From: a virus
DNA: 28,400 bases
Virus record (IMG/VR): IMGVR_UViG_3300024581_000703
Span: 1-28,400 of that record
Direction: 5' to 3' (one strand)
The position numbers were made by a program, and so were the translations under genes. Position 1 is the stretch's first letter. Each line of letters begins with the position of its first letter. Of the stretch, positions 100-28,400 are shown piece after piece. A model generated the notes under the pieces. That model searched no databases, was not told where the DNA came from, and saw nothing but the letters and a program-made list of their open reading frames with translations.

Positions 100-1065
100 T
101 ACTTTGCTGATGCCGCCGACAGCCTGCCGTTACCAAGTTCAGCAGCATCAGAATACCGCATTGATGGCAACGGTATGTTTCTATCTGACAGCAGAGCCGT
201 CGCATCGGATTATGTGTACCCAATTGCCGATCGCGACAGCATACGTAGCTATGCAGCGTTGGCCTTTTTGAACGGCGACGACGTAGGCAGCACAGGATCG
301 GACTACTTGCACGTAACTTATTACAACGGCACCACGCAGTTGGCATCGGGGTTCTTTCAAAACAACTCAACCAATGGCGGGTGGCCACCTGCTACGGGAG
401 GCAGCGATGAACAAAGCCTGTTGTACGTAGGCATTGGACCTGCAAACTTGCAATTGCAAAGCGTGAACAGCACGTTGAGACCGTCCGTGAATAGCAGTTA
501 TACACATTACTATGTGCAGATGGCGAGCGGTTCAACGTTAGCAGGCAACGAAACAAGCAAGCGATACAAGTTTGAACGTATCCCATGCAACAAGTTTTGG
601 ACCGTAGGTAGCGCGTACACCTTGCATTGGTGGAACAGTAAAGGTGGGGTGGACAGTTTGCCGTGTGCAGGAATGCACGAACAGTCGCAAAGCGTCGACC
701 GCAAAAGTTACCGTACCAGTGGAGGCAATAGTTTCAATGCCAACGGGACCAGCACAGAGTATAGCAAACACAGTTTTGAAGGCGGTAAACGCGGCACCAA
801 GGCACAAACGACAACGACCTTAAAGCTATCCATTCAGGGCGGTTCAGTTGATTTGTACACGCCATTCATTCGATCGCTCATGAACAGCGAGAGGGTGTAC
901 CTTTCAGGCAACAGCAAATTTGGATTTAACACGGACCGCAATGCTACGGGGGTGGTCCAGGTATACGTCACGGATGCACAAAAGGAATACCTGCAATCGG
1001 TAAACCAGCAGGTAGAAAGTTACACCGTGACCGTTGAACTGAGCCGACGCATTCCAAATCCATGA
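1..1065 (+). CDS. 3' part of the same junction-spanning structural protein (the ORF-track entry 58-1065 is an internal fragment)
   Basis: Codons starting at base 1 (TLRFGYEYAATVNDPP...) continue the 27984 ORF. The stop at 1063-1065 overlaps the next ATG (ATGA). Confidence 0.7.
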   Translation, partial: TLRFGYEYAATVNDPPTETLLAATDTEVVVVNGYFADAADSLPLPSSAASEYRIDGNGMFLSDSRAVASDYVYPIADRDSIRSYAALAFLNGDDVGSTGSDYLHVTYYNGTTQLASGFFQNNSTNGGWPPATGGSDEQSLLYVGIGPANLQLQSVNSTLRPSVNSSYTHYYVQMASGSTLAGNETSKRYKFERIPCNKFWTVGSAYTLHWWNSKGGVDSLPCAGMHEQSQSVDRKSYRTSGGNSFNANGTSTEYSKHSFEGGKRGTKAQTTTTLKLSIQGGSVDLYTPFIRSLMNSERVYLSGNSKFGFNTDRNATGVVQVYVTDAQKEYLQSVNQQVESYTVTVELSRRIPNP

Positions 1066-4000
1066 TACAGTTAGTCGCAACCATTCAGGGCGGTACCCAG
1101 CAATTTGAGTTGGATACCTCAGCCAGCCCAATCGAATTGAACTTTCAGTATTGGGACATCGAGAACCCAATGCAGTCGAGGTCGCCGTATACGTACAACT
1201 TTACGCTGCCGTACACGAAAACCAACGATGCGTTCTTTTCGTTTTACTTCAACGCGAACACATCAGACGGTACGTTTAAGGCCACGAACAAAACCGATGT
1301 GGCACTGTACGTTGACGGTCAGTTAGTTATGCAGGGTATTCTACAACTGCATGGTTGCGGCGAAAAGGAACAGGGGTATAGCGTGACAATCCTGGAACAG
1401 ATAGCTAAGGTATTCGACCTAATTAAAGGCATGACCTGGGACCAGTTGTTTACCACGGATGCGGGCACGGTCGATACGGACCTGGACCACGCGTTGACAT
1501 GGGACAACGTAACCGATAGTTGGACCACCTCAAATGACATTACAACTGGATCGGTTGGTGCGGGTACAATCGTGTACCCATTAGCCGATGGAGGGCAAGG
1601 TACTGCGATGAATGCACAGCAGGCAGGCACGGGGTCGGGGTTCTTCTATAACCAGTCAATAGGTATTGGCGGCAACGTCACAACATACGGCATGGACGAC
1701 CAGTATCTGAGCGTGGCCAACCTTAAGCCTGCTATACGTATTGCATACCTCATAGAGTATATTTTTAAACGTGTGGGGTACACCATTGAAAGTACGTTTG
1801 TCAACAGCACGGACTTTCAGAACATCTATATGTTCCTGGCCCTGCATACACTGCGTGCCACGAACCGTCCTACGTATGGGTTCAGCGTAGGCATACAGGG
1901 CGATATGCAGTTACCCACAGCGGGGGCCAGCGTGTTCTTTCCTTTGTCGTTTACAAATGAAAGTGTCCCATACTTTGACCCCGATGGGTTAATTACGGGC
2001 GGCAATTTTACCGCGCCATACGACGGGGTGTTTACGTTTACGGTCAACGTAGTATGCAGCACCTCGACAGGCAACGTGTTGCAGGGGTATGCTTTCTATA
2101 CGCGCATAACCGTGGGCGGGGAGACCGTCGTTTCTGACCAGTACCAAACCGTAAACTACCAAACCACGGCAGTTGTAAACCATACGTATGTGCTGAGTTT
2201 AGACGCAGGCGATACGGTGAACGTTTACGTGGCGCATTCCAGCACGACGGTACCCGTGACAGTAGAGGAGTCGGGCGCACAATCGGCGACGTTCTTTACG
2301 CTCAGTCAAATTAACAGTTCGGGCGGCCTAATTGACGTGTCGGCCAACTTCCCAAACGTCACGGTGGACAAGTGGTTGAAGGCAATAGTCGAAAGGTTTA
2401 ACCTCATCTTTGTTAGCACAGCCGACCAGCCAACCGTTATTCAGGTAGAACCGTGGTCGGATTGGTGGGCCAGCGGCACAGCGCAAAAGGATTGGACCGA
2501 GATTGTAGACCAGGACAGCATAGAGATAACGCCAACCACGAAGTACCAAAAGAAACTGTACACATTCACAGATGCGGAAGGTTCGAACTTTTCAAATCAA
2601 TGGTGGCAGCACCATTACGGGTACGTCAAGGGGCAATACGAATTCATAAACGAAAACGATTTCGTCACCAATACTGCGACGACAGAAAAAGTATTTCAGC
2701 CATACCGCAACCGCGCACTGTATTCAAACATTCAGGGCACGGGTTCCAGCGTGGTGCCCAACGTGTTGCTGCCTGCTTTTTGGAAGTGGCACGATGGATC
2801 GGATGGAAGCATCTATTTGAAAGAGTACGTACCGAACAAACCAGTGTTGGCATATTACAACGGTTTGCAGGACATAGGCAACAGCGGGCAATTTGAATTC
2901 GGCGGTACGACATACACGCAGTACCCCTATTTCTCAGAGTACAACGATGTTGGTGTAGACCTGGACACGAAGTGTTTACGATGGGGGTACGACTACCCCG
3001 ACAATTTCCTGTCACCCTTTGTCAGTGGTGGGACGACGGCAGGGGTCACCTTGAACTACGCATGGCGTACTTATTGGTCGCAGATGTTTTCAGAACTATA
3101 CGACCCTGACAGTAGGGTAATGAAATGCAAGGTCAACCTTTCGGTTGCCGATCTGTACAACCTGCGATTTAATGATACGCTGTACCTGGATGGGTGTTAT
3201 TGGAGGATATTGTCAATCAACAATTTCAGCCTAACAAGTAACGACCTGGCCAACGCGGTATTGGTCAAGGTCCTAAACCGTCCCGTAGGTAGAGCGAGTG
3301 AGGACTGCGATGCGCGACCAACCAGTGTAAACGTAGACGGCACGGTAAACTTTGTAGGTCCTGACAATCAGCCAGTTAGCCCAACAGAGGTGTGTTGCAC
3401 ATTGAACGGTTTTACCTGGGACAACACAGCCAGCGTATGCAGGGCACGCGATGCGTCGGGCGGGGGTGGCCATGGTGGAGGTAATGGTGGTGGCGGCACA
3501 GGGTCCGACGGTGCCAACCCGTCAACCAACATCGAGGGGTCGCTGCCTTCATCATACAACGACTTTGGCCACGGTGCCGATGTTCAACAATTCGCACAGC
3601 GGCAGACCATTGCAGGGAACATAACCGCCCAACTGTATGCCCGCACGACAGGGACGACAGCCGTAAACGCAGCATTGACCACGGGTATATCAGAATGGAG
3701 CGTGCCCCAGGACAACATTGTGCTGATTCAATTACGCGTCGTTTCGGTGCAAGTAGGTGGATCGGGTGCAACCATTGGTGACAGCAACACGCAGTTTATT
3801 CAGATGACCGTAGCCAACACGCGGGAGGCAGCAGGTAGACCAACCATTGCCCGCACCGTAGGCAGCGCAAATACCATAGCCGAAAACAAGGACACGGGGT
3901 TGTCGTCAAGGGTCAACATACCTGTGGCACAGTCCAGTGACGGCGACGTGGCGACGTTTAGTATCGCGTGCATAGGTGACAATAACGTTGACTATCAGTG

Positions 4001-4148
4001 GTTTATAGACATGGAGTTAACAACTATGCAGGTACAAGGCGACGCGTCCAGCATGGCGCAAGCAGTGTTCTTTAATCAAGACCCCTCAGTGCCTGTGACC
4101 CTGGACCTCAGCCCCGACGAATTCATGTACTTTAACCTGGAACCGTAA
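1062..4148 (+). CDS. Large tail hub / tail-tip protein, putative (1028 aa)
   Basis: Long ORF translationally coupled to the upstream gene (ATGA). Its size and position next to the tape-measure-like gene fit a tail hub. A Gly-rich hinge GGGGHGGGNGGGGTGSDG (about 3460-3510) is followed by a beta-rich C-terminal module of about 200 aa. Confidence 0.5.
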   Translation: MIQLVATIQGGTQQFELDTSASPIELNFQYWDIENPMQSRSPYTYNFTLPYTKTNDAFFSFYFNANTSDGTFKATNKTDVALYVDGQLVMQGILQLHGCGEKEQGYSVTILEQIAKVFDLIKGMTWDQLFTTDAGTVDTDLDHALTWDNVTDSWTTSNDITTGSVGAGTIVYPLADGGQGTAMNAQQAGTGSGFFYNQSIGIGGNVTTYGMDDQYLSVANLKPAIRIAYLIEYIFKRVGYTIESTFVNSTDFQNIYMFLALHTLRATNRPTYGFSVGIQGDMQLPTAGASVFFPLSFTNESVPYFDPDGLITGGNFTAPYDGVFTFTVNVVCSTSTGNVLQGYAFYTRITVGGETVVSDQYQTVNYQTTAVVNHTYVLSLDAGDTVNVYVAHSSTTVPVTVEESGAQSATFFTLSQINSSGGLIDVSANFPNVTVDKWLKAIVERFNLIFVSTADQPTVIQVEPWSDWWASGTAQKDWTEIVDQDSIEITPTTKYQKKLYTFTDAEGSNFSNQWWQHHYGYVKGQYEFINENDFVTNTATTEKVFQPYRNRALYSNIQGTGSSVVPNVLLPAFWKWHDGSDGSIYLKEYVPNKPVLAYYNGLQDIGNSGQFEFGGTTYTQYPYFSEYNDVGVDLDTKCLRWGYDYPDNFLSPFVSGGTTAGVTLNYAWRTYWSQMFSELYDPDSRVMKCKVNLSVADLYNLRFNDTLYLDGCYWRILSINNFSLTSNDLANAVLVKVLNRPVGRASEDCDARPTSVNVDGTVNFVGPDNQPVSPTEVCCTLNGFTWDNTASVCRARDASGGGGHGGGNGGGGTGSDGANPSTNIEGSLPSSYNDFGHGADVQQFAQRQTIAGNITAQLYARTTGTTAVNAALTTGISEWSVPQDNIVLIQLRVVSVQVGGSGATIGDSNTQFIQMTVANTREAAGRPTIARTVGSANTIAENKDTGLSSRVNIPVAQSSDGDVATFSIACIGDNNVDYQWFIDMELTTMQVQGDASSMAQAVFFNQDPSVPVTLDLSPDEFMYFNLEP

Positions 4149-4327
4149 TGAAGTATTGGATAAACGCAATAGGGTACGGAATACCCAGCAGCATACAGTT
4201 AACTAAAATCCATATATACAAGGGGGACCCACTGTACGCGCAATGGTATGGAAGGTACAGCCTAAGTAAATCCAGCATCAGCAAAATGCTTTTAATCCTA
4301 TGGAATGGCGAACGACGTAAACATTAA
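4148..4327 (+). CDS. Possible unannotated 59-aa ORF, just below the ORF-track cutoff
   Basis: ATG at 4148 overlaps the stop of the 1028-aa gene (TAATG, the coupling pattern used throughout this genome). It translates to MKYWINAIGYGIPSSIQLTKIHIYKGDPLYAQWYGRYSLSKSSISKMLLILWNGERRKH with a stop at 4325-4327. It would fill an otherwise unusual 156-nt gap, but it also contains a copy of the CCATATATA motif. Confidence 0.3.
   Translation: MKYWINAIGYGIPSSIQLTKIHIYKGDPLYAQWYGRYSLSKSSISKMLLILWNGERRKH
4210..4218 (+). promoter_or_regulatory. Copy of the CCATATATA motif (candidate late promoter/regulatory element), 87 nt upstream of the tape measure ATG
   Basis: aactaaaaTCCATATATAcaagg. Confidence 0.35.
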
Positions 4328-6170
4328 CATTGTATCCAAAGACAAGGCCAGCGGTCCAATTCGCAAGGCGGGGCGAGAGGTTAAGCGATTAGGCAAGACA
4401 GCAAGCAAGGCGGGACAGGACGCAAAAAAAGATTGGGGTGGCCTGGGTGACCTTTTCAGCGGGCTATTGCCGCGTGGTTTACAATCTACTTTGCGAGGTT
4501 TCAAGGGTGCCCAACGTCAGATCGGGCGGTTGTCCAAAAGTTTCAAGGTATTAAAGAGTTCCATTGCGGCCACTGGATTGGGTTTGTTGGTCATTGCATT
4601 GGGTGAGATAGTGGCCAACTGGGATTCAATTACGGAATCAATAACCAGTGCATCAGATGAAACAGAGAAGCAGGTCGAAATGGCCCAGGAGCAGGTCGAT
4701 TTGGCAAAGGAAAACCTGGACATAATTAGTGATACGGAGAACATTTTGAAGTTGCAGGGAGCAACGGAGGAGGACCTGTTAGAGATGCGCATGGCCGCCA
4801 CCGACGAAGCCATAGCCGCACAGAAAATTCAGATTGAAGCCTTAAAGCAACAGCAAGAAGAACAGACCAAAGCGGCAGAAACGGCACGCACCGTAGCCAA
4901 GGTTATCATTGGATTGTTAATGAGTCCAGTAACGGCGGCGTTGCTTGCGGTGGACCAACTAACGGCGGCAATGGCAGCGATCGGTTTGTTGGAAGAGGGC
5001 ACAGATTTCGCAAATGAGGCAGGTAATTGGGCTGCCGCTAAACTTGGATTGGACCCCGACAAGACAAATGAGGAGGGACAAAAGGCGGTCGATGCTGCAC
5101 AGGACCAACTGACGAAGTTGGAAAACACGCGGGCTGGATACATTCTAAGGAGGAACAAAGCGGAAGAACAAGCAGAACAAGAAGCCCAACGCGAAAGAGA
5201 TAAAGCAGCAGAAAAGGAACGTGCCGATGCAGAATTCCGCGCACAGCAGATGGAGAAACTGGAAAGGGATATGGAGTTGCGGGCCATTCAAGATGCAGAG
5301 GCGCGGGATCTACGCAAGCGGGAAATGCAATACGAGGATGACAAAGCGGCGTTGGAGGCACGCGGTGCTACGTTGGAGGAGTTGGCGGTATTGGAGGAAC
5401 AGTACGGCATGGACACCGCAGACATCAGAAAAAAGTACAGCGACCAACGACAGGCAGAAGAACAGAAAGAAGCAGAAGCACGGCAGGCATTAGAAGACGA
5501 ATTGTTCGAGGCAGGGCTGAGTGACTACGACAGGGAATTGATGCAACTACAACAGTTGTATGACCGCAGGGTAGCCATTGCAGGGGATGACGAGGGGTTG
5601 ATACTTGCGGCCCAGCAGGATTTCCTGAAAAGGAAAAAAGCATTGGATGACAAGGCAGCCCAGGACGAGGAGCAAAACCTTAAGGACCAGGCGGCTATGC
5701 GTGAGGATGTAACGCGTTCCAGCATTGAATTGATTGGTAACCTCAACGCCTTGTTTACATCTAAATCAGAAAAGGATAGCAAAAAATCCTTTGAACGTAC
5801 CAAGGCGTTAAGCATCAGCGAGACCCTGATTAGCACATACTTCGCTGCACAGAAAGCATACGCTTCACAATTTACGCCCGTACCCGATCCCACTTCACCC
5901 GTGCGTGGTACGTTAGCGGCGGCAGTTGCGGTGACCTCAGGACTGGCAAAGGTAAAAGCGATAAGCCAACAGCAATACAACGGTGGTAGTAACGCAGGCA
6001 GTGGTGGAAGCGGCGGTGCCCGTCGCAGTGGATTCGGACCAACACAGCAACAGTTGCCTATGCCCGCACGGTTGAGCAGCCCCGACGCGATGCAGGCATT
6101 TGTGGTTCAAACGCAGTTGCAGGGACAGATGAACAGCGCACAAAAGTTGCAGTCGCAAACAGTTTTGTAA
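4305..6170 (+). CDS. Tape measure protein, putative (621 aa)
   Basis: Two hydrophobic segments (ATGLGLLVIALGEIV; VAKVIIGLLMSPVTAALLAV). A long E/K/R/A/Q-rich coiled-coil core. The C-terminal ISETLISTYFAAQKAYAS...GTLAAAVAVTSGLAKV motif and the Gly/Ser-rich tail are typical of tape measure proteins. Confidence 0.65.
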   Translation: MANDVNINIVSKDKASGPIRKAGREVKRLGKTASKAGQDAKKDWGGLGDLFSGLLPRGLQSTLRGFKGAQRQIGRLSKSFKVLKSSIAATGLGLLVIALGEIVANWDSITESITSASDETEKQVEMAQEQVDLAKENLDIISDTENILKLQGATEEDLLEMRMAATDEAIAAQKIQIEALKQQQEEQTKAAETARTVAKVIIGLLMSPVTAALLAVDQLTAAMAAIGLLEEGTDFANEAGNWAAAKLGLDPDKTNEEGQKAVDAAQDQLTKLENTRAGYILRRNKAEEQAEQEAQRERDKAAEKERADAEFRAQQMEKLERDMELRAIQDAEARDLRKREMQYEDDKAALEARGATLEELAVLEEQYGMDTADIRKKYSDQRQAEEQKEAEARQALEDELFEAGLSDYDRELMQLQQLYDRRVAIAGDDEGLILAAQQDFLKRKKALDDKAAQDEEQNLKDQAAMREDVTRSSIELIGNLNALFTSKSEKDSKKSFERTKALSISETLISTYFAAQKAYASQFTPVPDPTSPVRGTLAAAVAVTSGLAKVKAISQQQYNGGSNAGSGGSGGARRSGFGPTQQQLPMPARLSSPDAMQAFVVQTQLQGQMNSAQKLQSQTVL

Positions 6171-12030: not shown

Positions 12031-12384
12031 ATGTTGCAGATTACCAATGCGAACACGGCACAGTCCGTATATTTGAAACTGGACAATTACGGCAGCGGTC
12101 CCGTGCGATTAACGTTCACGAATCAGTACAGCGGCCAAACGTTCGAATTCACAGGCACCGTAGTGGTAAATAACGACAGGTATCAGGAAATCCAAATAAC
12201 GCCCCCAGGAGGCACGAACGCCATGCAGGAGGGGTTGTACCTTGTCGTGGTCGAGAACTGGGCACAGACGGCCCTGTGTGCGTCCAGGCTGGCATTTGTG
12301 GCCAGTGTCCCCGCGTTCAGTGAGGCGACGTACACAACATACACCGAAGGAGACACAGACGCATACAAGGTATACACACCATGA
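12031..12384 (+). CDS. Hypothetical beta-rich protein (117 aa), possibly a virion decoration or accessory protein
   Basis: ATG ORF just after the terminator and a CATATAT-type motif. It is ATGA-coupled to the portal gene. Confidence 0.55.
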   Translation: MLQITNANTAQSVYLKLDNYGSGPVRLTFTNQYSGQTFEFTGTVVVNNDRYQEIQITPPGGTNAMQEGLYLVVVENWAQTALCASRLAFVASVPAFSEATYTTYTEGDTDAYKVYTP

Positions 12385-14393
12385 ACAGACAGCAGTTTAA
12401 CATTCTCAACTATCAATCCACGAACACACCCGTATTTGAGGAATCGCGTACGCATGAATGGATTGACGAGGGAAAGGATAATCTATACCCCCACTATTTA
12501 GAGGAACTGTACGTCAGTTCCAGCATTCACAGTGCCATTATCAATGGGGTGGCGCAAATGATTTATGGTGAGGGGTTGGATGCTGTATACAAGGACTTTA
12601 ATGTTGAGCAGTGGCTTAAGGTGCAACAGTTGTTCACCGACCAGGAATGCCTAAAACGATGTGCGTTAGACCTGAAACTGTACGGGCAATGTTTCTTTAA
12701 CATCATTTGGTCGCAGGACAGGTCAACCGTTTCAGAGGTTCACCACGTCCCCGCCGCTACTATTCGATGTGGTGTAGCAGATGACGAGGATAAGGTGACT
12801 GAGTTCTACCACAAAACGGATTGGTCCGATCAGAAAATACAGCCACAGGTTATCCCTGCGTTCAATACGTCCGATCGTACAGCAGCCAGTCAAATAGTAC
12901 ACTGCAAACTGTACAACCCATTATCGTTTTACTACGGGTTGCCCGACTACCTGGGCAGCACAAACTACATTGAGGTAGACGCAAACCTCAGCGAGTACCA
13001 CCTTAACAGTATTAACAACGGGTTTTTTCCTTCAACCATTCTTTCATTCAACGACGGTGTACCCACCGAAGAAGAGCGTGCAGAACTGGAACGGTTAGTG
13101 TATTCCAAATTTGGTAGTGCATCGAATGCAGGAAAAATCTTAATGACATTCAACGATACCAGCGAGAACGCACCCACCGTTGAATCGTTCAATGTAAGCG
13201 ATTCACACAAAGTGTTTGACTACTTGTCCAAGGAAGTAGTCGTAAAGATTCTCAGCGGGCACCGCGTAACATCGCCACTGTTGTTTGGTATTCGAAACGA
13301 AGGCGGTGGGTTTGGTTCAAATGCAGAGGAAATGAAGGATGCGTACGACCTGTTTTACAACACGGTTATTATTCCATTCCAACGGATCCTGTTAGACGGC
13401 TTGCGACCCGTATTTGCAGCGGCAGGTATTACACTGGATTTGTATTTCAAGCCGCTAAAACCTGCATCGTTCCTTACCGTTGACACCTTGTTTGGACAAG
13501 CAAGTGGAGCAGACACTGCCGACAAGGATGCGAGTTACAACGGCGCACAAATTGCATCGGCGGTTGAGGTATTGGTTAAGGTCCAGGAGGGTATTATTAC
13601 TGAGGAGCAGGCTAAGGTGTTCCTGGTTCAGATGTTGCAGTTTACGCCTGAGGTTGCAGACGCATTGTTTGTCCAGGGCATTGATGCAATTGCAGCCGTG
13701 GAGAAAGAAGAGGATACCGAGGAGGCCGTAGCCGAAACCCAGTTGTCAAAAAAAAAAAGTAGCGACGACAAGGAATGGTTAGAGATGTTGCGGGGCGTGG
13801 ACAGTAGGTTAGGCAACGATTGGTGGTTACTACGCAGCGACGAGGTAACAGATACCACCACTGACCATGCTTTGTACAACGCAAAAATGCAGTTGTTCTA
13901 CAAAGAGTACGGTGACAATTTCGAAGAGATAAGCCCTGAGCGCGACATCATTAGCAAGGACGGGTACCTGTTTGCTGTACGCTACTATTACGAGGAGACA
14001 GCACAAACGCCACCCGTAAACCCCAACTATGAGTCCCGCGAATTTTGCCAGGAAATGATGGAGTTGTCCCTGGACGGTGTGCAATACCGTTGGGAGGATT
14101 TGGTACGTATGGAGCGCGACGGGGTAAACGGGGACTTTGCACCCAGTGGCCAGTCAAAGTACAGTATTGTAGATTGGAAAGGAGGGGTGTACTGCCGTCA
14201 TGGTTTTGTAAGAAACATCTACGTGTACGCGCCAGGCGGTGAGTTGGCAGAGGATGTGCAGGAGAAAGAAATCGAAGGCGCGTGGGACGACGTGATGCGG
14301 AAGGTAGGTAACAACTTTGAAGTTGAACAACCAGGTTTTGAAATCGTGGCACCAATTGACACGCCGTCAAGGGGTTCACTTAAATACGGATAA
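12381..14393 (+). CDS. Portal protein fused to a C-terminal MuF / SPP1 gp7-like minor head protein domain (670 aa)
   Basis: The N-terminal ~450 aa look portal-like (YPHYLEELYVSSSIHSAIINGVAQMIYGEGL, NYIEVDANLSEYHLNSINNGFFPS, FGIRNEGGGFGSNAEEMKDAYDLFYNTVIIPFQ). An acidic linker and an A11 tract follow. The C-terminal ~200 aa carry SREFCQEMMEL...YRWEDL...YSIVDWKGGVYCRHGF, which resembles the Cys/His signature of MuF-like minor head proteins. Confidence 0.7.
   Translation: MNRQQFNILNYQSTNTPVFEESRTHEWIDEGKDNLYPHYLEELYVSSSIHSAIINGVAQMIYGEGLDAVYKDFNVEQWLKVQQLFTDQECLKRCALDLKLYGQCFFNIIWSQDRSTVSEVHHVPAATIRCGVADDEDKVTEFYHKTDWSDQKIQPQVIPAFNTSDRTAASQIVHCKLYNPLSFYYGLPDYLGSTNYIEVDANLSEYHLNSINNGFFPSTILSFNDGVPTEEERAELERLVYSKFGSASNAGKILMTFNDTSENAPTVESFNVSDSHKVFDYLSKEVVVKILSGHRVTSPLLFGIRNEGGGFGSNAEEMKDAYDLFYNTVIIPFQRILLDGLRPVFAAAGITLDLYFKPLKPASFLTVDTLFGQASGADTADKDASYNGAQIASAVEVLVKVQEGIITEEQAKVFLVQMLQFTPEVADALFVQGIDAIAAVEKEEDTEEAVAETQLSKKKSSDDKEWLEMLRGVDSRLGNDWWLLRSDEVTDTTTDHALYNAKMQLFYKEYGDNFEEISPERDIISKDGYLFAVRYYYEETAQTPPVNPNYESREFCQEMMELSLDGVQYRWEDLVRMERDGVNGDFAPSGQSKYSIVDWKGGVYCRHGFVRNIYVYAPGGELAEDVQEKEIEGAWDDVMRKVGNNFEVEQPGFEIVAPIDTPSRGSLKYG
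13748..13758 (+). other. A11 homopolymer inside the portal gene, at the portal / MuF-like domain boundary
   Basis: tcAAAAAAAAAAAgtagcg. The in-frame reading is SKKKSS. The -1 frame hits TAG at 13760-13762, and the +1 frame hits TAG eight codons past the tract. Confidence 0.9.
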
Positions 14394-19174: not shown

Positions 19175-19219
19175 TCGTACGGGGGGGTTTTTCGTTTCCT
19201 TCTACCCCCTTTGCGGTAA

Positions 19220-19249
19220 CCCCTGCCTACACGGTGGGGGTTTTTTTTT
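19220..19249 (+). terminator. Strong rho-independent terminator closing the late/lysis operon
   Basis: CCCCTGCC (19220-19227) pairs with GGTGGGGG (19233-19240), giving 6 GC pairs and 2 GU pairs around the loop TACAC, followed by T9 (19241-19249). Confidence 0.8.
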
Positions 19250-21357: not shown

Positions 21358-22043
21358 AGAAGGCGAAACGTCAAGGGGTTTGGATCCCAGCAGAGATATA
21401 CAACGACAAGACGTTGACCTGGACGCAGAAACTAATGTTGGTTGAGATAGCAAGTTTCTGTAACAATGGCCGTGAATGCTACGTAAGCAACGAACACCTG
21501 GGAAAATTTTTGCAGGTGAGCAACAGCCAGGTGGTGAAGGTGCTGCGTTCATTGGTTGACCGTGGGTTAGTGCTACGTAAATTCATACCACACGATGAAG
21601 GTAACAGGCGCATCTTGTCGGTAGCTGATGGGTACGCACCGACGACTACCCCCGTAGTCATGGAGTCCACCCCCCACCCAGCACCTACGACTACCCCCCA
21701 TGAGCATGGAGGAGTAGGGGGGGGTAAGCGTGGAGGACTACATACTAATACAGGTACTACTAATACAGTGACTAAAACAGGTACTAAGGGCAAGCCCGCC
21801 GACATTCAAGAAGTGAGGGATTATTTCAAGGAATTGGGTATGGGGTTCTTAGAAGCCGAAAGGTTTTGGGATTGGTACACGCAAACAGGATGGAAGTTGA
21901 AAGGCGGCAACACCATTAAGGACTGGAAAGCTACCGCCCGCAATTGGAAAAGAAGATTAGATGAAAGAAGTAAAGACACGCGAGGGTTCAAGCAATCAAA
22001 TTTCAATGCTGAAGCCCTGCACAATTATGTTGTTGAAGGATAA
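21354..22043 (+). CDS. Replisome organizer / replication initiator-like protein (229 aa)
   Basis: N-terminal winged-HTH-like segment (LTWTQKLMLVEIASF...VSNEHLGKFLQVSNSQVVKVLRSLVDRGLV), a Thr/Pro/Gly low-complexity linker, and a C-terminal VRDYFKELG...AERFWDWYTQTGWKLKGGNTIKDWKATARNWKRR motif common in phage replication-organizer C-termini. Confidence 0.6.
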   Translation: MKKAKRQGVWIPAEIYNDKTLTWTQKLMLVEIASFCNNGRECYVSNEHLGKFLQVSNSQVVKVLRSLVDRGLVLRKFIPHDEGNRRILSVADGYAPTTTPVVMESTPHPAPTTTPHEHGGVGGGKRGGLHTNTGTTNTVTKTGTKGKPADIQEVRDYFKELGMGFLEAERFWDWYTQTGWKLKGGNTIKDWKATARNWKRRLDERSKDTRGFKQSNFNAEALHNYVVEG

Positions 22044-24750: not shown

Positions 24751-25066
24751 TGAACTAAGGGCCTTTCTTGCTGATAACAATTGTTTGTTAGTAGATGGAT
24801 TCGACCACTGTGTAGCCTCACACACGTACTACCCCGTGAAAGCAGTGTACAGTGTGGTTTGCATCTTGGGTACATTGATGCACGAAGGCATGACTGAGGA
24901 ACAAGCGTGGGAGCATTTTACTTACAACATCGTGGGTGCCCGACCCAATGAGGACAACGCACCCGTATTTATGTACGACGTAGAAATGGCACGGGAGTAT
25001 TACCAACAGAAAATGGACGACCTCATTGAAACAACCGAAGACATATTACGACGTAATACAAAGTGA
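24743..25066 (+). CDS. Hypothetical protein (107 aa) between the small-terminase-like gene and TerL
   Basis: ATG ORF overlapping both neighbours. Confidence 0.55.
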   Translation: MNDELRAFLADNNCLLVDGFDHCVASHTYYPVKAVYSVVCILGTLMHEGMTEEQAWEHFTYNIVGARPNEDNAPVFMYDVEMAREYYQQKMDDLIETTEDILRRNTK

Positions 25067-26177
25067 TGCACGCATAGTTTGTTGTCAAGGGGGAACGCGT
25101 TCAGGCAAAACCATGAGCATCTTAACGGTGCTGATTGAATGGTGTTACACGTATCAAAACTGTAACTACACGATTGATGTAATCAGGGCATCATTCCCGT
25201 CTTTGCGTGCGTCGGTGTATAAGGATTTCCTGGGCATACTACACAGGGAGCAGTGGTACGACGAACGCAACCACAACAAGACGGAGAACACGTACAACCT
25301 ATTCGGCAATACGTGGCGATTCATGAGTGCTGACCAGCCACAGAAATTTCGTGGGGTTGCCCGCAATTTTGCGTTTCTCAATGAGGCGAACGAATTGGAT
25401 TTGGAGACGTTCAGGCAGGTCAGTTTTCGATGCACCGACAAGTTGTTCATTGACTTCAACCCTTCCATGGAATACCACTGGCTGTACGATGAGGTCATAC
25501 CCAGGGACGACTGCGATTTCTTTAAGAGTACATACAAGGACAACCCGTACCTGAATGCAGATACAATCGCAGAGATTGAACGACTCAAAGACACGGACGA
25601 AAACTATTGGAGGATATACGGTTTAGGTGAGCGTGGCAAATCCAGGGCTACAATCTTTGAGAGCCACATATACGAGGAGGTCCCCGATCGGGCAAAGGTG
25701 GTAGCGTATGGTTTGGATTGGGGGTTTAGTTCAGACCCAACTGCATTGGTCAAGGTGTATCAGGCAGGCACAGATTTGTATATCGAGGAGTTGATGTACA
25801 CAGGTGGCCTAACCAACCAGGACATAATCGACCGCCTCAGGGATTTAGGGATAGGTAGGCACGACGAAATAGTAGCAGACAACGCAGAGCCTAAGAGCAT
25901 AGAAGAAATACGCAGGGCAGGCTTTAATATTAAGCCGTCTAAGAAAGGTCCTGACAGCATACGCAAGGGTATCGACCTTATGCGGCGGCACAAACTGCAC
26001 ATAAAGGATGACAGCCTAAACGCGCAAAAGGAATTCAGGAACTACAAATGGAAGACGGATAAGGACAACCGCACGCTACCCGTACCCGAAAGTGGGTGGG
26101 ACCATGCCGTTGATGCGGTCCGTTACGTATGCCTCAACAAGCTATTACGCAGAACAGGAACCTATACAATCCAATGA
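25026..26177 (+). CDS. terL: Terminase large subunit (PBSX-type), 383 aa, with a TTG start
   Basis: Walker A CQGGTRSGKT, Walker B / catalytic Glu FAFLNEANEL, and nuclease motifs GLDWGFSSDPTALV, ADNAEPKSIEE and GWDHAVDAVRY. The only conventional (ATG/GTG/TTG) in-frame start upstream of Walker A is TTG at 25026, because the frame opens after the TAG at 24981; an in-frame ATT at 24999 is the only other, non-standard, possibility. Confidence 0.9.
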   Translation: MKQPKTYYDVIQSDARIVCCQGGTRSGKTMSILTVLIEWCYTYQNCNYTIDVIRASFPSLRASVYKDFLGILHREQWYDERNHNKTENTYNLFGNTWRFMSADQPQKFRGVARNFAFLNEANELDLETFRQVSFRCTDKLFIDFNPSMEYHWLYDEVIPRDDCDFFKSTYKDNPYLNADTIAEIERLKDTDENYWRIYGLGERGKSRATIFESHIYEEVPDRAKVVAYGLDWGFSSDPTALVKVYQAGTDLYIEELMYTGGLTNQDIIDRLRDLGIGRHDEIVADNAEPKSIEEIRRAGFNIKPSKKGPDSIRKGIDLMRRHKLHIKDDSLNAQKEFRNYKWKTDKDNRTLPVPESGWDHAVDAVRYVCLNKLLRRTGTYTIQ

Positions 26178-26839
26178 AGATACGACTACCCGAAAGTTGG
26201 AGCGAGATAACCGTGGGCCAGTACAAAAAAATGTGGGCTGCATTCGAGAGGGAGAGCGAAGGCATCGCCGCCGTGCGTAGGTGCATCGAGGTGTTAAGCA
26301 ATTTGAATGAGGGCACCCTGTTACAAGCAGACCACAACGACATCGAAAAGGCCACCACCAAAATTGCGTGGTTGCTAAATGAACCCGATCCCTTTGCTAT
26401 GAAAATGCCATTGAAACAGCGGGTAACCATTGAAGGTAGGACCTATGCATTCATACCTGACTGGACCAAACTAACAGTGGCAGAGTTCGCAGACATGGAA
26501 ACGTACTGCAACAAAGGGTTGTTTGACCACCTGGAAAAAATCATGGCGGTTATGTATCGACCAATTGCAGCAGAGGAATTCGATATGTACGACCTGGAAC
26601 CGTACACAGCCAGCAAGCAAAGGCAAACAGTTATGTTGCAATGCCCCATGGATGTATGCGTTTCGGCAGTGGTTTTTTTTTGCAACATTCAAAAGGCATT
26701 AGCTACCACTACGCAAGCCTATTCAAAGAACCAGGAGACGGGGAAAACGGTAAGGCCCAAACGGTGGCGAAAAAATGGGGGTGGTATCAAATCATTTATA
26801 GGTTGGCCGATGGGGATATTACAAAAATGGAAGCGGTAG
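26174..26839 (+). CDS. 0-frame product (221 aa) of the gene after TerL; tail-assembly-chaperone-like candidate
   Basis: The ATG at 26174 overlaps the TerL stop (ATGA); an alternative ATG is at 26129. Motifs: IRLPESWSEITVGQYKKM and KLTVAEFADMETY. After the T9 tract the 0-frame tail looks non-protein-like (basic, Gly/Trp/Lys-rich). Confidence 0.55.
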   Translation: MKIRLPESWSEITVGQYKKMWAAFERESEGIAAVRRCIEVLSNLNEGTLLQADHNDIEKATTKIAWLLNEPDPFAMKMPLKQRVTIEGRTYAFIPDWTKLTVAEFADMETYCNKGLFDHLEKIMAVMYRPIAAEEFDMYDLEPYTASKQRQTVMLQCPMDVCVSAVVFFCNIQKALATTTQAYSKNQETGKTVRPKRWRKNGGGIKSFIGWPMGILQKWKR

Positions 26840-26919
26840 AATCCATATATATAGATGTAGCCTTAACATTCCTGGCCTATGAAAAGGACGTTGAGATGCA
26901 GGACAAAGTAAAAATCTGA
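26174..26919 (+). CDS. Alternative 248-aa product if reading shifts -1 in the T9 tract (26174-26680 joined to 26680-26919), or the true single ORF if the tract is really T10
   Basis: The -1 frame is open from just upstream of the tract (26641) to TGA at 26917-26919, which overlaps the next gene's ATG (TGATG). The extension LQHSKGISYHYASLFKEPGDGENGKAQTVAKKWGWYQIIYRLADGDITKMEAVESIYIDVALTFLAYEKDVEMQDKVKI looks like a genuine folded sequence. Confidence 0.5.
26674..26680 (+). promoter_or_regulatory. Candidate -1 slippery heptamer T_TTT_TTT inside the T9 tract (26673-26681)
   Basis: The zero-frame codons are gtT TTT TTT tgc. Both tRNA-Phe can re-pair perfectly after a -1 slip. Confidence 0.4.
26843..26851 (+). 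promoter_or_regulatory. Exact CCATATATA copy 68 nt upstream of the 26919 gene, just after the 0-frame stop of the upstream gene
   Basis: ggtagaaTCCATATATAtagatgtag. Confidence 0.35.
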
Positions 26920-27380
26920 TGCACACAATAGTCGACATTAACAACACCTTCGAATCCATAGCGGAGGCACACGAACAACTGCGTAGTTTTCATACAACTG
27001 GACTGGACGAGTTAGACGTGGACAAATTGGACGTGGATAAATACCCTTTGCTGTATGCGCAGGTCACTAATGCGGAGTTGGCAGACGGGTATACAACGCT
27101 AACCTATGAGGTATTGGTGGGCGATTTGGTTATTGAAAAGCAGCACCCCAATCTGACAGAGGTATACAGCGAAACGTTCTTAATCATGCAGGACGTGGCG
27201 GCCCAATTTTGGTTTAACGTATCAACAGCAGGGGACCAGGTAGACAGCAATTTGTCCTTTGAGTTGCCGATCGTGTGCCAACCATTTACAGCACGGTTCA
27301 ACAACCTGCTAACAGGGTGGTCATGTTCGTTTGATGTGCGGCTGCCCAATGCATTAAACCTTTGTCATGCCCCTTACTGA
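26919..27380 (+). CDS. Hypothetical virion/neck-module protein (153 aa)
   Basis: ATG ORF coupled to the -1 frame stop of the upstream gene. It contains a tandem LDVDK-LDVDK. Confidence 0.55.
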   Translation: MHTIVDINNTFESIAEAHEQLRSFHTTGLDELDVDKLDVDKYPLLYAQVTNAELADGYTTLTYEVLVGDLVIEKQHPNLTEVYSETFLIMQDVAAQFWFNVSTAGDQVDSNLSFELPIVCQPFTARFNNLLTGWSCSFDVRLPNALNLCHAPY

Positions 27381-27984: not shown

Positions 27985-28400
27985 TGGCATACACAGTTAA
28001 CCAAAGTACAACAGGGGTTCAGGGAGTAGGGGACCAGTTAATATACGTGGTCCAGGATACGACGAACGTAACCGAACCAAAGTACCGTTACGTATGCCAG
28101 GTTACCATTGACGGAACGGCGGTTATCAAACTTAAGCAGTTGCCCAATAACAATAATGCAGCCGTGTTCGATGTGCAGAGCATAGCCCAGGCATACGTTA
28201 AGCAGGACGAGAACCCTTACCAATTAGGGTTCCTCAACCTGGACCAACAGTTATCCCTGACTACTATCTACGCACGCAACACCAACGCATTAAAGACGGT
28301 AACCCTACGGTTTGGATACGAGTACGCAGCCACTGTAAACGACCCACCCACGGAGACCTTGCTGGCCGCTACTGATACAGAGGTGGTGGTGGTCAATGGC
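27984..28400 (+). CDS. 5' part of a 460-aa virion (tail/baseplate-region) structural protein that wraps the junction (27984-28301 joined to 1-1065)
   Basis: ATG at 27984 overlaps the upstream stop (TAATG). The frame is open to the window end (MAYTVNQSTTGVQGVGDQLIYVVQD...) and in frame with base 1 after removing the 99-bp repeat. It was not in the ORF track because no stop falls inside the window end. Confidence 0.7.
   Translation, partial: MAYTVNQSTTGVQGVGDQLIYVVQDTTNVTEPKYRYVCQVTIDGTAVIKLKQLPNNNNAAVFDVQSIAQAYVKQDENPYQLGFLNLDQQLSLTTIYARNTNALKTVTLRFGYEYAATVNDPPTETLLAATDTEVVVVNG
28302..28400. repeat. Right copy of the 99-bp exact terminal direct repeat
   Basis: Identical to 1-99 on base-by-base reading. 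Confidence 0.95.

Follow-up and report, generated by a model that had tools for sequence, protein, structure and literature searches.

A conserved run of nine T's as a probable programmed frame switch in the gene following the terminase in a group of aquatic phages

The window analysed here is the whole stretch of 28,400 nucleotides of the virus record IMGVR_UViG_3300024581_000703. Directly after the gene for the terminase large subunit (TerL) it carries a gene, hereafter gene X, in which a run of nine T's (T9) marks the passage from one conserved reading frame to another. We show that this two-frame layout is conserved and that the T9 site is under selection at the nucleotide level. Recoding at T9 is very probably programmed, and we give an even chance to the full explanation that gene X yields two proteins, a short one and a C-terminally extended one, through programmed slippage at the conserved T9, with the host RNA polymerase as the more likely slipping machine and a probable use of both forms in tail morphogenesis. 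The elements concerned are the following:

26673..26681, + strand: T9 homopolymer, the slippage site, containing the in-phase heptamer T_TTT_TTT (26674-26680)
26174..26839, + strand: zero-frame open reading frame (ORF) of gene X, encoding the short product of 221 aa, made of an N-domain (residues 1-169) and a 52-residue tail
26680..26919, + strand: continuation in the -1 frame, 79 codons and a TGA, encoding residues 170-248 of the long product

In the zero frame, the codons at the run are GCA GTG GTT TTT TTT TGC and reading continues to the TAG at 26837-26839, which leaves a gap of 79 nt before the next gene. After a slip of one base, the first -1 codon is the TTG at 26680 and the frame stays open until a TGA (26917-26919) that overlaps the start codon of the following gene, an ATG at 26919 (TGATG); the fusion product then has 248 aa (...AVVFF-LQHSK...). 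The +1 frame closes after 9 codons. All these coordinates (the position of T9, the in-phase heptamer, the 79 codons of the -1 frame, the TGATG overlap and the 79-nt gap) had been given in a preliminary description of the window and were reproduced. The same description had placed the opening of the -1 frame 32 nt upstream of the run, which holds for its first ATG (26641), but the stop-free stretch already starts at 26527, after the TGA at 26524-26526, i.e., 51 codons upstream of 26680.

The alignment of homologous genes, proposed in the preliminary description as a check, was performed on 80 loci from viral contigs (25-96% protein identity), to which the cultured phage P12024S and the window were added, for a total of 82 sequences, 57 of them distinct. 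A run is present at the homologous site in 82/82 sequences, as T9 in 54 of the 57 distinct ones and as T10 in the other 3, and never shorter. Relative to the N-domain, the conserved C-terminal part is likewise found in the -1 frame in 82/82 sequences, so that the two-frame arrangement and its slippery site are kept at every locus, and the same layout was found in two further contigs from metagenome-assembled genomes (MAG). The run is kept in three codon phases, xTT TTT TTT Txx in the majority, xxT TTT TTT TTG in L035 and L036 and TTT TTT TTT in L068, and in each of them the heptamer stays in phase, for the window as for all the relatives. In nearly all of these the start of the downstream ORF overlaps the end of the -1 ORF, and the zero-frame tail has between 26 and 76 codons, its stop position being scattered.

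In P12024S, the gene following TerL (gp38) reads CTT TTT TTT TAT at the site, and gp39, which is annotated separately, occupies the -1 frame and is a homologue of the -1 tail of the window. A relative with a single ORF, P0015, matches gp38 and gp39 as two pieces that cover 96% of its length. The split state dominates the databases: the 14 closest homologues (14/14) all correspond to the zero-frame product, none being fused, and the split form was seen in about 74 of the 80 homologues of a wider profile search. In a library of 1.84 billion proteins the family comprises 5711 clusters at E <= 1e-3, and in only about 18 of the top 150 clusters does the profile match extend as far as the C-terminus. 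No description of the T9 site or of the gene X family came up in searches of the literature. As for the annotation of the P12024S locus (L001 6001-6695, corresponding to NC_018271 23136-23830), gp38 and gp39 stand there as separate hypothetical proteins, and a small gp40 on the opposite strand, which overlaps the end of gp39, looks spurious.

These data bear directly on the possibility, raised in the preliminary description, that the frame change is a homopolymer error and that the true gene is a single ORF with T10, to which the idea of a dead C-terminal part in a decaying pseudogene may be added. T9 against T10 is indeed a classic homopolymer miscall, and T10 or T11 puts a few relatives in frame, but the error would have to recur in 82 loci of unrelated samples and in two cultured phage genomes. 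The out-of-frame T9 layout recurs across independent metagenomes, in about 57 distinct sequences, as well as in the two cultured phages, which refutes the error, and a pseudogene is contradicted by the purifying selection described below; we attach a negligible probability to both. The other proposal of the preliminary description, a programmed shift giving two overlapping products, is on the contrary strongly supported by the conserved site and by the conserved C-terminal domain in the -1 frame.

The site is constrained beyond the proteins that it encodes. The Phe codons at the run are TTT in 114 of 114 cases, compared with 53% TTT and 47% TTC elsewhere in these genes, and in a DNA alignment of 27 sequences (-48 to +60 relative to the run) the nine T's are the only invariant block of nucleotides. 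The synonymous variant GTT TTT TTC TGC, which turns the heptamer into T_TTT_TTC and preserves both proteins (TTC coding for Phe, CTG for Leu), was not found in any of the 57 distinct DNA sequences. In our protein alignment (A3), conservation in the -1 frame begins directly at the run, with FFL.[YH].[KR]G[IT]...[YF]..LF, then an acidic Gly-rich linker, then KWGWY..LY.LA.GD.LK...V......LT.LAY.KD. The KWGWY motif lies at 26773-26787 in the window; its W204 is invariant in A3 and W202, G203 and Y205 are conserved at 90% or more. Over the KWGWY region, the substitutions seen in 17 independent close pairs are distributed as 48/14/112 over the three -1 codon positions, with dominance of the third one, and the -1 part is under clear purifying selection. 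A second slip candidate, CGA AAA AAT (A_AAA_AAT, 26770-26776), situated before KKWGWY, was discarded since the -1 conservation starts directly at the T-run, including in P0080, a relative which has no run.

Could the C-terminal part be a separate gene translated from its own start, as the annotation of gp38 and gp39 in P12024S has it? The window does contain two ATG in the -1 frame (26641 and 26656), and gene callers give ORFs of 51-110 aa here, but in 52 of the 57 distinct sequences no ATG precedes the run in the -1 frame, and in 52/57 no Met is encoded between the run and WGWY. From these codon counts, the -1 part is judged unable to start translation by itself. Moreover, its conservation begins exactly at the run, and single-ORF homologues and the AlphaFold model represent one continuous protein, so that two separate genes are a very improbable explanation.

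The existence of the long form is supported by relatives in which it is encoded in frame. In some single-ORF relatives the run has one base more than in the out-of-frame form, being T10 (L082 and L083) or T11 (L084, L086 and L087), and others are fused without any run, such as P0080 (..AMHLYSEWSDGIKETYPEMY..) and, in a library of representatives, P0158 and P0236. Since in-frame relatives with T10 or T11 or without a run exist, the fusion of the N- and C-terminal parts is taken as a real protein. Two further fused relatives present other arrangements: P0140 (GFFDYRK), whose run is probably two bases shorter, and P0135, a single ORF (..VFFWTLEK-RIIESYTQIF..) in which the five residues after FF are zero-frame-like and the rest -1-like. 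In P0135, the slippage site appears to have given way to a compensating indel situated a few codons further on. AlphaFold2 modelling of the window fusion gave a mean predicted local distance difference test (pLDDT) of 91.7 and a predicted template modelling score (pTM) of 0.86, with a predicted helix 159-179 spanning the shift point (residues 168-170). Sequence comparison and modelling thus both show the fusion as a real, foldable protein, whose predicted C-terminal portion is organized as follows:

26725..26748, + strand: variable acidic Gly-rich linker (residues 185-192), of variable length and sequence in A3, pLDDT 64-74
26749..26916, + strand: C-terminal four-helix domain present in the long form only (helices 193-247, pLDDT 89-96 with AlphaFold2)

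The short form is probably functional too, judging from the dominance of the split state and from signals in both frames just after the run. These signals concern the following stretch:

26680..26730, + strand: first ~17 codons after the run, encoding CNIQKALATTTQAYSK in the zero frame and LQHSKGISYHYASLF in the -1 frame, apparently constrained in both

In the 17 independent close pairs, the distribution of substitutions by codon position is flat in this stretch (21/15/27), compared with 31/18/77 upstream, with substitutions accumulating at about 58% of the upstream rate. The pairs differ there by 38 residues in the zero frame and by 29 in the -1 frame. Across clades, "EL" persists in the zero frame while the -1 frame alternates between GI and RT. 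Modelling of the zero-frame product with AlphaFold2 kept the N-domain with confidence and extended its helix to about residue 189; the confidence drops from 67 to 51 and the pLDDT is below 50 from residue 188. The distal part of the tail is very basic, with a pI of 12. The preliminary description regarded the whole zero-frame tail as out-of-frame sequence, which fits its distal part but probably not the first ~16 residues, which show signs of selection. Together, the substitution pattern and the models suggest that a short dual-coded stretch completes the last helix in both isoforms. The zero-frame product also matches phrog_32199 (function unknown) up to the end of the profile, which could hint that the zero frame is the true one; this reading was set aside, the match being explained by the origin of the profile, presumably built from zero-frame annotations, and by the conserved first ~16 residues of the tail.

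The mechanism that we favour would proceed as follows. Standard decoding would give the short form, composed of the N-domain, a short zero-frame extension of its helix and a variable basic tail, whereas a one-base slip at the U-run would bring translation into the -1 frame and give the 248-aa form, with the N-domain, its last helix, the acidic linker and the four-helix KWGWY domain. The slip would occur when the host RNA polymerase adds one U on the nine-base rU:dA hybrid, converting U9 into U10, as in Shigella mxiE, and -1 slippage of tRNA-Phe on U_UUU_UUU in the ribosome may contribute, the protein being identical by either route. The short form would be the major species and the long form a minor one endowed with an additional binding domain, and by analogy with G/GT of phage lambda the two would be made at a set ratio for tail morphogenesis. 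It is the nature of the slipping machine, the isoform ratio, the function of the short form and the tail-chaperone role that we infer in this scheme.

Several computations looked for an RNA signal beside the run. Single-sequence folds at the run gave z-scores of +0.3 to +1.4, i.e., less stable than shuffled sequences, RNAalifold, run on 27 sequences over -48 to +60, predicted 0 pairs, Rfam had no match at the run and a scan for a terminator-like hairpin before T9 found none. With no conserved RNA structure beside the run, the signal would be slippage on the bare U9. Nine is the critical length, at which selection against slippage is seen in bacterial genomes, and in mxiE an insertion in a U-run joins two ORFs (PMC1088944). 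Gene X presents what is expected of transcriptional slippage, namely a run of at least nine bases at the frame junction and a conservation of nucleotides beyond the need of the proteins; from what is expected of a stimulated -1 programmed ribosomal frameshift, it has the zero-frame X_XXY_YYZ heptamer and lacks a conserved stimulatory structure.

We have a slight preference for RNA polymerase over the ribosome as the main route of slippage, with even odds for it being so, or for a joint action of the two, because no run shorter than nine and no T_TTT_TTC were found, because the in-frame variants keep the run and because a second conserved homopolymer exists in the portal gene of these phages. 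The less probable, though serious, alternative is a purely ribosomal -1 frameshift on U_UUU_UUU, of the kind of lambda G/GT or P2 E/E', in which two tRNA-Phe slip back at low efficiency, with no stimulator and on an mRNA that always has U9. In its favour, the heptamer stands in phase in the window as in every relative, and an unstimulated ribosomal shift of low efficiency is the established mechanism for the tail chaperones of phages (PMC5009743); for an HK97-like cluster, a value of ~6-7% was measured (PMC3711429). The residues beside the run, V/L/I before and L/F after, can account for its outer T's in the common phase. Against the ribosome alone speak the 0/57 DNA sequences with T_TTT_TTC or a run shorter than nine, either of which would keep the proteins and the heptamer, the T10 and T11 kept by the in-frame relatives and the A10-11 conserved by the same phages in the portal gene; in addition, slippage of the polymerase is to be expected in any case on a nine-base rU:dA hybrid (PMC1088944).

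A number of points weigh against slippage by the polymerase, or against the two-protein explanation as a whole. T9 holds an in-phase T_TTT_TTT in every phase, and the outer T's of the common phase are largely forced by the flanking V/L/I before and L/F after, so that the nine-base length alone is no proof of the polymerase. The tail-chaperone frameshifts of phages which have no stimulator are known as ribosomal, lambda being an example (PMC5009743), and the computed evidence separates polymerase from ribosomal slippage in no respect. In the AlphaFold model the shift point falls within a helix of a compact fold, not at a boundary between domains. The in-frame T10 and T11 variants could be assembly errors, 4 of the 5 being on contigs of 1-2 kb, and the dual-coding signal consists of 63 substitutions in 17 pairs, in overlapping frames that are coupled and not independent. 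For the proposed tail-chaperone role, gene X follows TerL in the window and in ~80 relatives, and is not between the major tail and TMP (tape-measure protein) genes; none of 30 family members matches the tail assembly chaperone (TAC) families of Pfam and PHROG, and the PDB has no match by profile search, with a best Foldseek E-value of 3.

Heritable phase variation, in which slippage during replication toggles the population between T9, giving only the short form, and T10, giving only the long one, was also considered. Long homopolymers are hypermutable (PMC1088944), and both out-of-frame and in-frame run lengths occur in natural sequences, but in very unequal numbers: 57 distinct sequences are out of frame versus 5 in frame, four of these on very short contigs. 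Each virion would moreover need both forms if they act together, and the overlap of the -1 stop with the next start and the signs of selection in both frames fit simultaneous expression better. We consider such toggling improbable.

What gene X does can be approached from its surroundings. The window ends with an exact direct repeat of its first 99 nt (1-99 and 28302-28400); it is thus a circularly assembled complete genome of 28,301 bp, whose genes at both ends are neighbours. The genes around X are:

25026..26177, + strand: TerL gene (Pfam Terminase_3 and Terminase_3C, phrog_2)
26919..27380, + strand: p153, the gene after X, whose ATG overlaps the -1 frame stop and not the zero-frame stop
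4305..6170, + strand: TMP-like gene (PHROG tape-measure families, 1e-15 to 1e-8)

The TerL stop overlaps the start of X (ATGA). Because the genome is circular, the TMP-like gene is ~5.7 kb downstream of X, in the same string of + strand genes. The preliminary description saw X as far from the tape-measure gene, which is correct in that the two are not adjacent, four genes lying between them in the window, but needs qualification as regards distance. The conserved string is TerL-X-p153-p205-p335-p1028, the last with a C1q domain, then the TMP-like gene, an XkdF-type protease, a major capsid protein-like gene and the portal gene; in the relative L002, the part from TerL to p1028 is contiguous on one piece. 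Given this conserved string and context, X would be a gene of the tail module. The neighbours p153, p205 and p335 have no sequence match in the PDB. The ORF of 1028 aa (window 1062-4148), directly upstream of the TMP-like gene, carries the C1q domain at aa 274-393 (Pfam, 24.9 bits) and is probably a tail fibre or receptor-binding protein, with an unusual position relative to the TMP gene.

Searches of cultured phages by tblastn, with distant members included, found as relatives only P12024S and P12024L, which infect Nonlabens (Persicivirga). The host-inference search turned up only the two MAG contigs with gene X mentioned above, which are probably mis-binned phage.

The only families that match gene X are phrog_32199 and phrog_38404, both of unknown function; the latter is presumably the C-terminal half. 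Foldseek against BFVD gave 44 uncharacterised phage proteins, many of them single ORFs of 240-270 aa, and two weak matches annotated as tail or tape-measure chaperones (E 0.016 and 0.096, template modelling scores of 0.2-0.4). More distant relatives provide other contexts. In L082, X is directly upstream of a TMP-like coiled-coil ORF, with one ORF of 55 aa between them and the protease after it, and a p1028-like gene and a gene of 192 aa are on its other side; the latter has no significant similarity to gp46 of P12024S. In clade B, which is more distant, TerL and X are separated by an intrinsic terminator with a conserved gccctaactttcggg motif after it, so X seems to start a new transcription unit there, and a variable ORF of 500-1000 aa, tail-fibre-like in several members, comes directly after X and overlaps it. 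The products gp47 and gp48 of P12024S, which occupy the slot before the putative TMP, were tried as paralogues of X and turned out to be unrelated (hhalign probability of 0.2).

The suggestion of the preliminary description that X is a G/GT-like chaperone gene thus has the two-frame layout in its favour, which is circumstantial, and against it the missing matches to TAC families and the PDB and a TMP gene that is not adjacent, except in the distant relative L082. From the analogy with known systems, a chaperone-like role in the tail may be regarded as an evenly balanced proposition. Gene X is not filed as a TAC since both its position and the homology tests failed.

Chaperones of the G/GT type bind the TMP through the part common to both forms and the tail tube protein through the extension, are needed for tail assembly and do not occur in virions. 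Compared with lambda G/GT (Xu, Hendrix and Duda 2004; PMC5009743), gene X would similarly have a short major product and a C-terminally extended one made through a conserved -1 shift with no RNA stimulator, the shift being kept across relatives with little sequence identity, and in L082 it lies just upstream of a TMP-like gene. It differs in following TerL instead of being between the major tail and TMP genes, in having no match to a TAC family or fold, and in its slip site, a nine-base homopolymer inside a helix, 52 codons before the zero-frame stop; its first ~17 codons after the site look dual-coded, and the mechanism may be transcriptional. The genes E and E' of phage P2, for the tail chaperone of contractile-tailed phages, also use a -1 shift on a T-rich slippery sequence, T_TTT_TTG, but this one has six T's and a G, in contrast to the conserved run of at least nine in X, and there is neither detectable homology nor a common gene position. 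In Shigella flexneri mxiE, spa13 and relatives (Penno et al.), the insertion of one untemplated U by RNA polymerase at a T-run was shown experimentally (PMC1088944, PMC5009743). As in X, overlapping ORFs are joined there at the T-run, the longer product depends on slippage and no other signal is needed; unlike X, where slippage is only inferred, they are cellular, plasmid-borne genes of type III secretion. The logic of gene X is therefore a known one (G/GT, E/E'), with probably the mechanics of mxiE, and what is new is an unannotated and widespread site, the homopolymer signal, the shift inside a helix and the possible dual coding.

A second homopolymer of the window is found in the portal-like ORF (12381-14393, 670 aa), which contains an in-frame A11 at 13748-13758, TCA AAA AAA AAA AGT (S-KKK-S). 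The tract is at about residue 456, at the domain junction and beyond the match to portal families (aa 9-360); after it the -1 frame is closed immediately and the +1 frame after 8 codons. It is conserved as A10 or A11, always with an in-frame AAA AAA AAA, in 12 distinct sequences including the window, down to ~30% identity. By analogy with dnaX of Thermus thermophilus, in which transcriptional slippage occurs on A9 (PMC1088944), it is possible that the portal tract is a slippage site giving a truncated portal. The likeness concerns this tract and not T9: standard decoding would give the long product and slippage in either direction the truncated one, in a different gene and a different organism.

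These observations allow a broader proposal, which we make only tentatively: a widespread group of aquatic phages with genomes of ~28 kb may use slippage of the host RNA polymerase, at T9 of gene X and at A10-11 of the portal gene, to set the isoform ratios of assembly proteins, X being a new chaperone fold whose last helix is encoded twice. If true, this would be, as far as the literature searches show, the first programmed transcriptional slippage known from the morphogenesis genes of a DNA phage, in an aquatic group whose only cultured relatives infect a flavobacterium. Whatever the mechanism, a family of thousands of cluster representatives from environmental phages is split or truncated in the records inspected, with the long product missed. 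A bare U9 as the only conserved signal offers a clean system for determining the shares of the polymerase and of the ribosome in bacterial "frameshifts", and the stretch after the run a possible example of a helix encoded in two overlapping frames. Finally, the tail module would begin with gene X in this phage group, about which little is known, and an assembly factor with two isoforms is predicted for it.

Other homopolymers were recorded in passing. Runs of nine T's or nine A's in the window amount to 5 overlapping matches in 3 places, versus 0.81 expected. Further T9 runs are situated behind GC-rich hairpins, in the window at 19241-19249 and in clade-B relatives, between TerL and X, at L044 365-373, L061 2841-2849, L080 2277-2285, L063 2894-2902 and L059 2943-2951; these other T9 runs look like ordinary intrinsic terminators. 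The window also contains a G7 at 19181-19187 and a G8 at 21717-21724.

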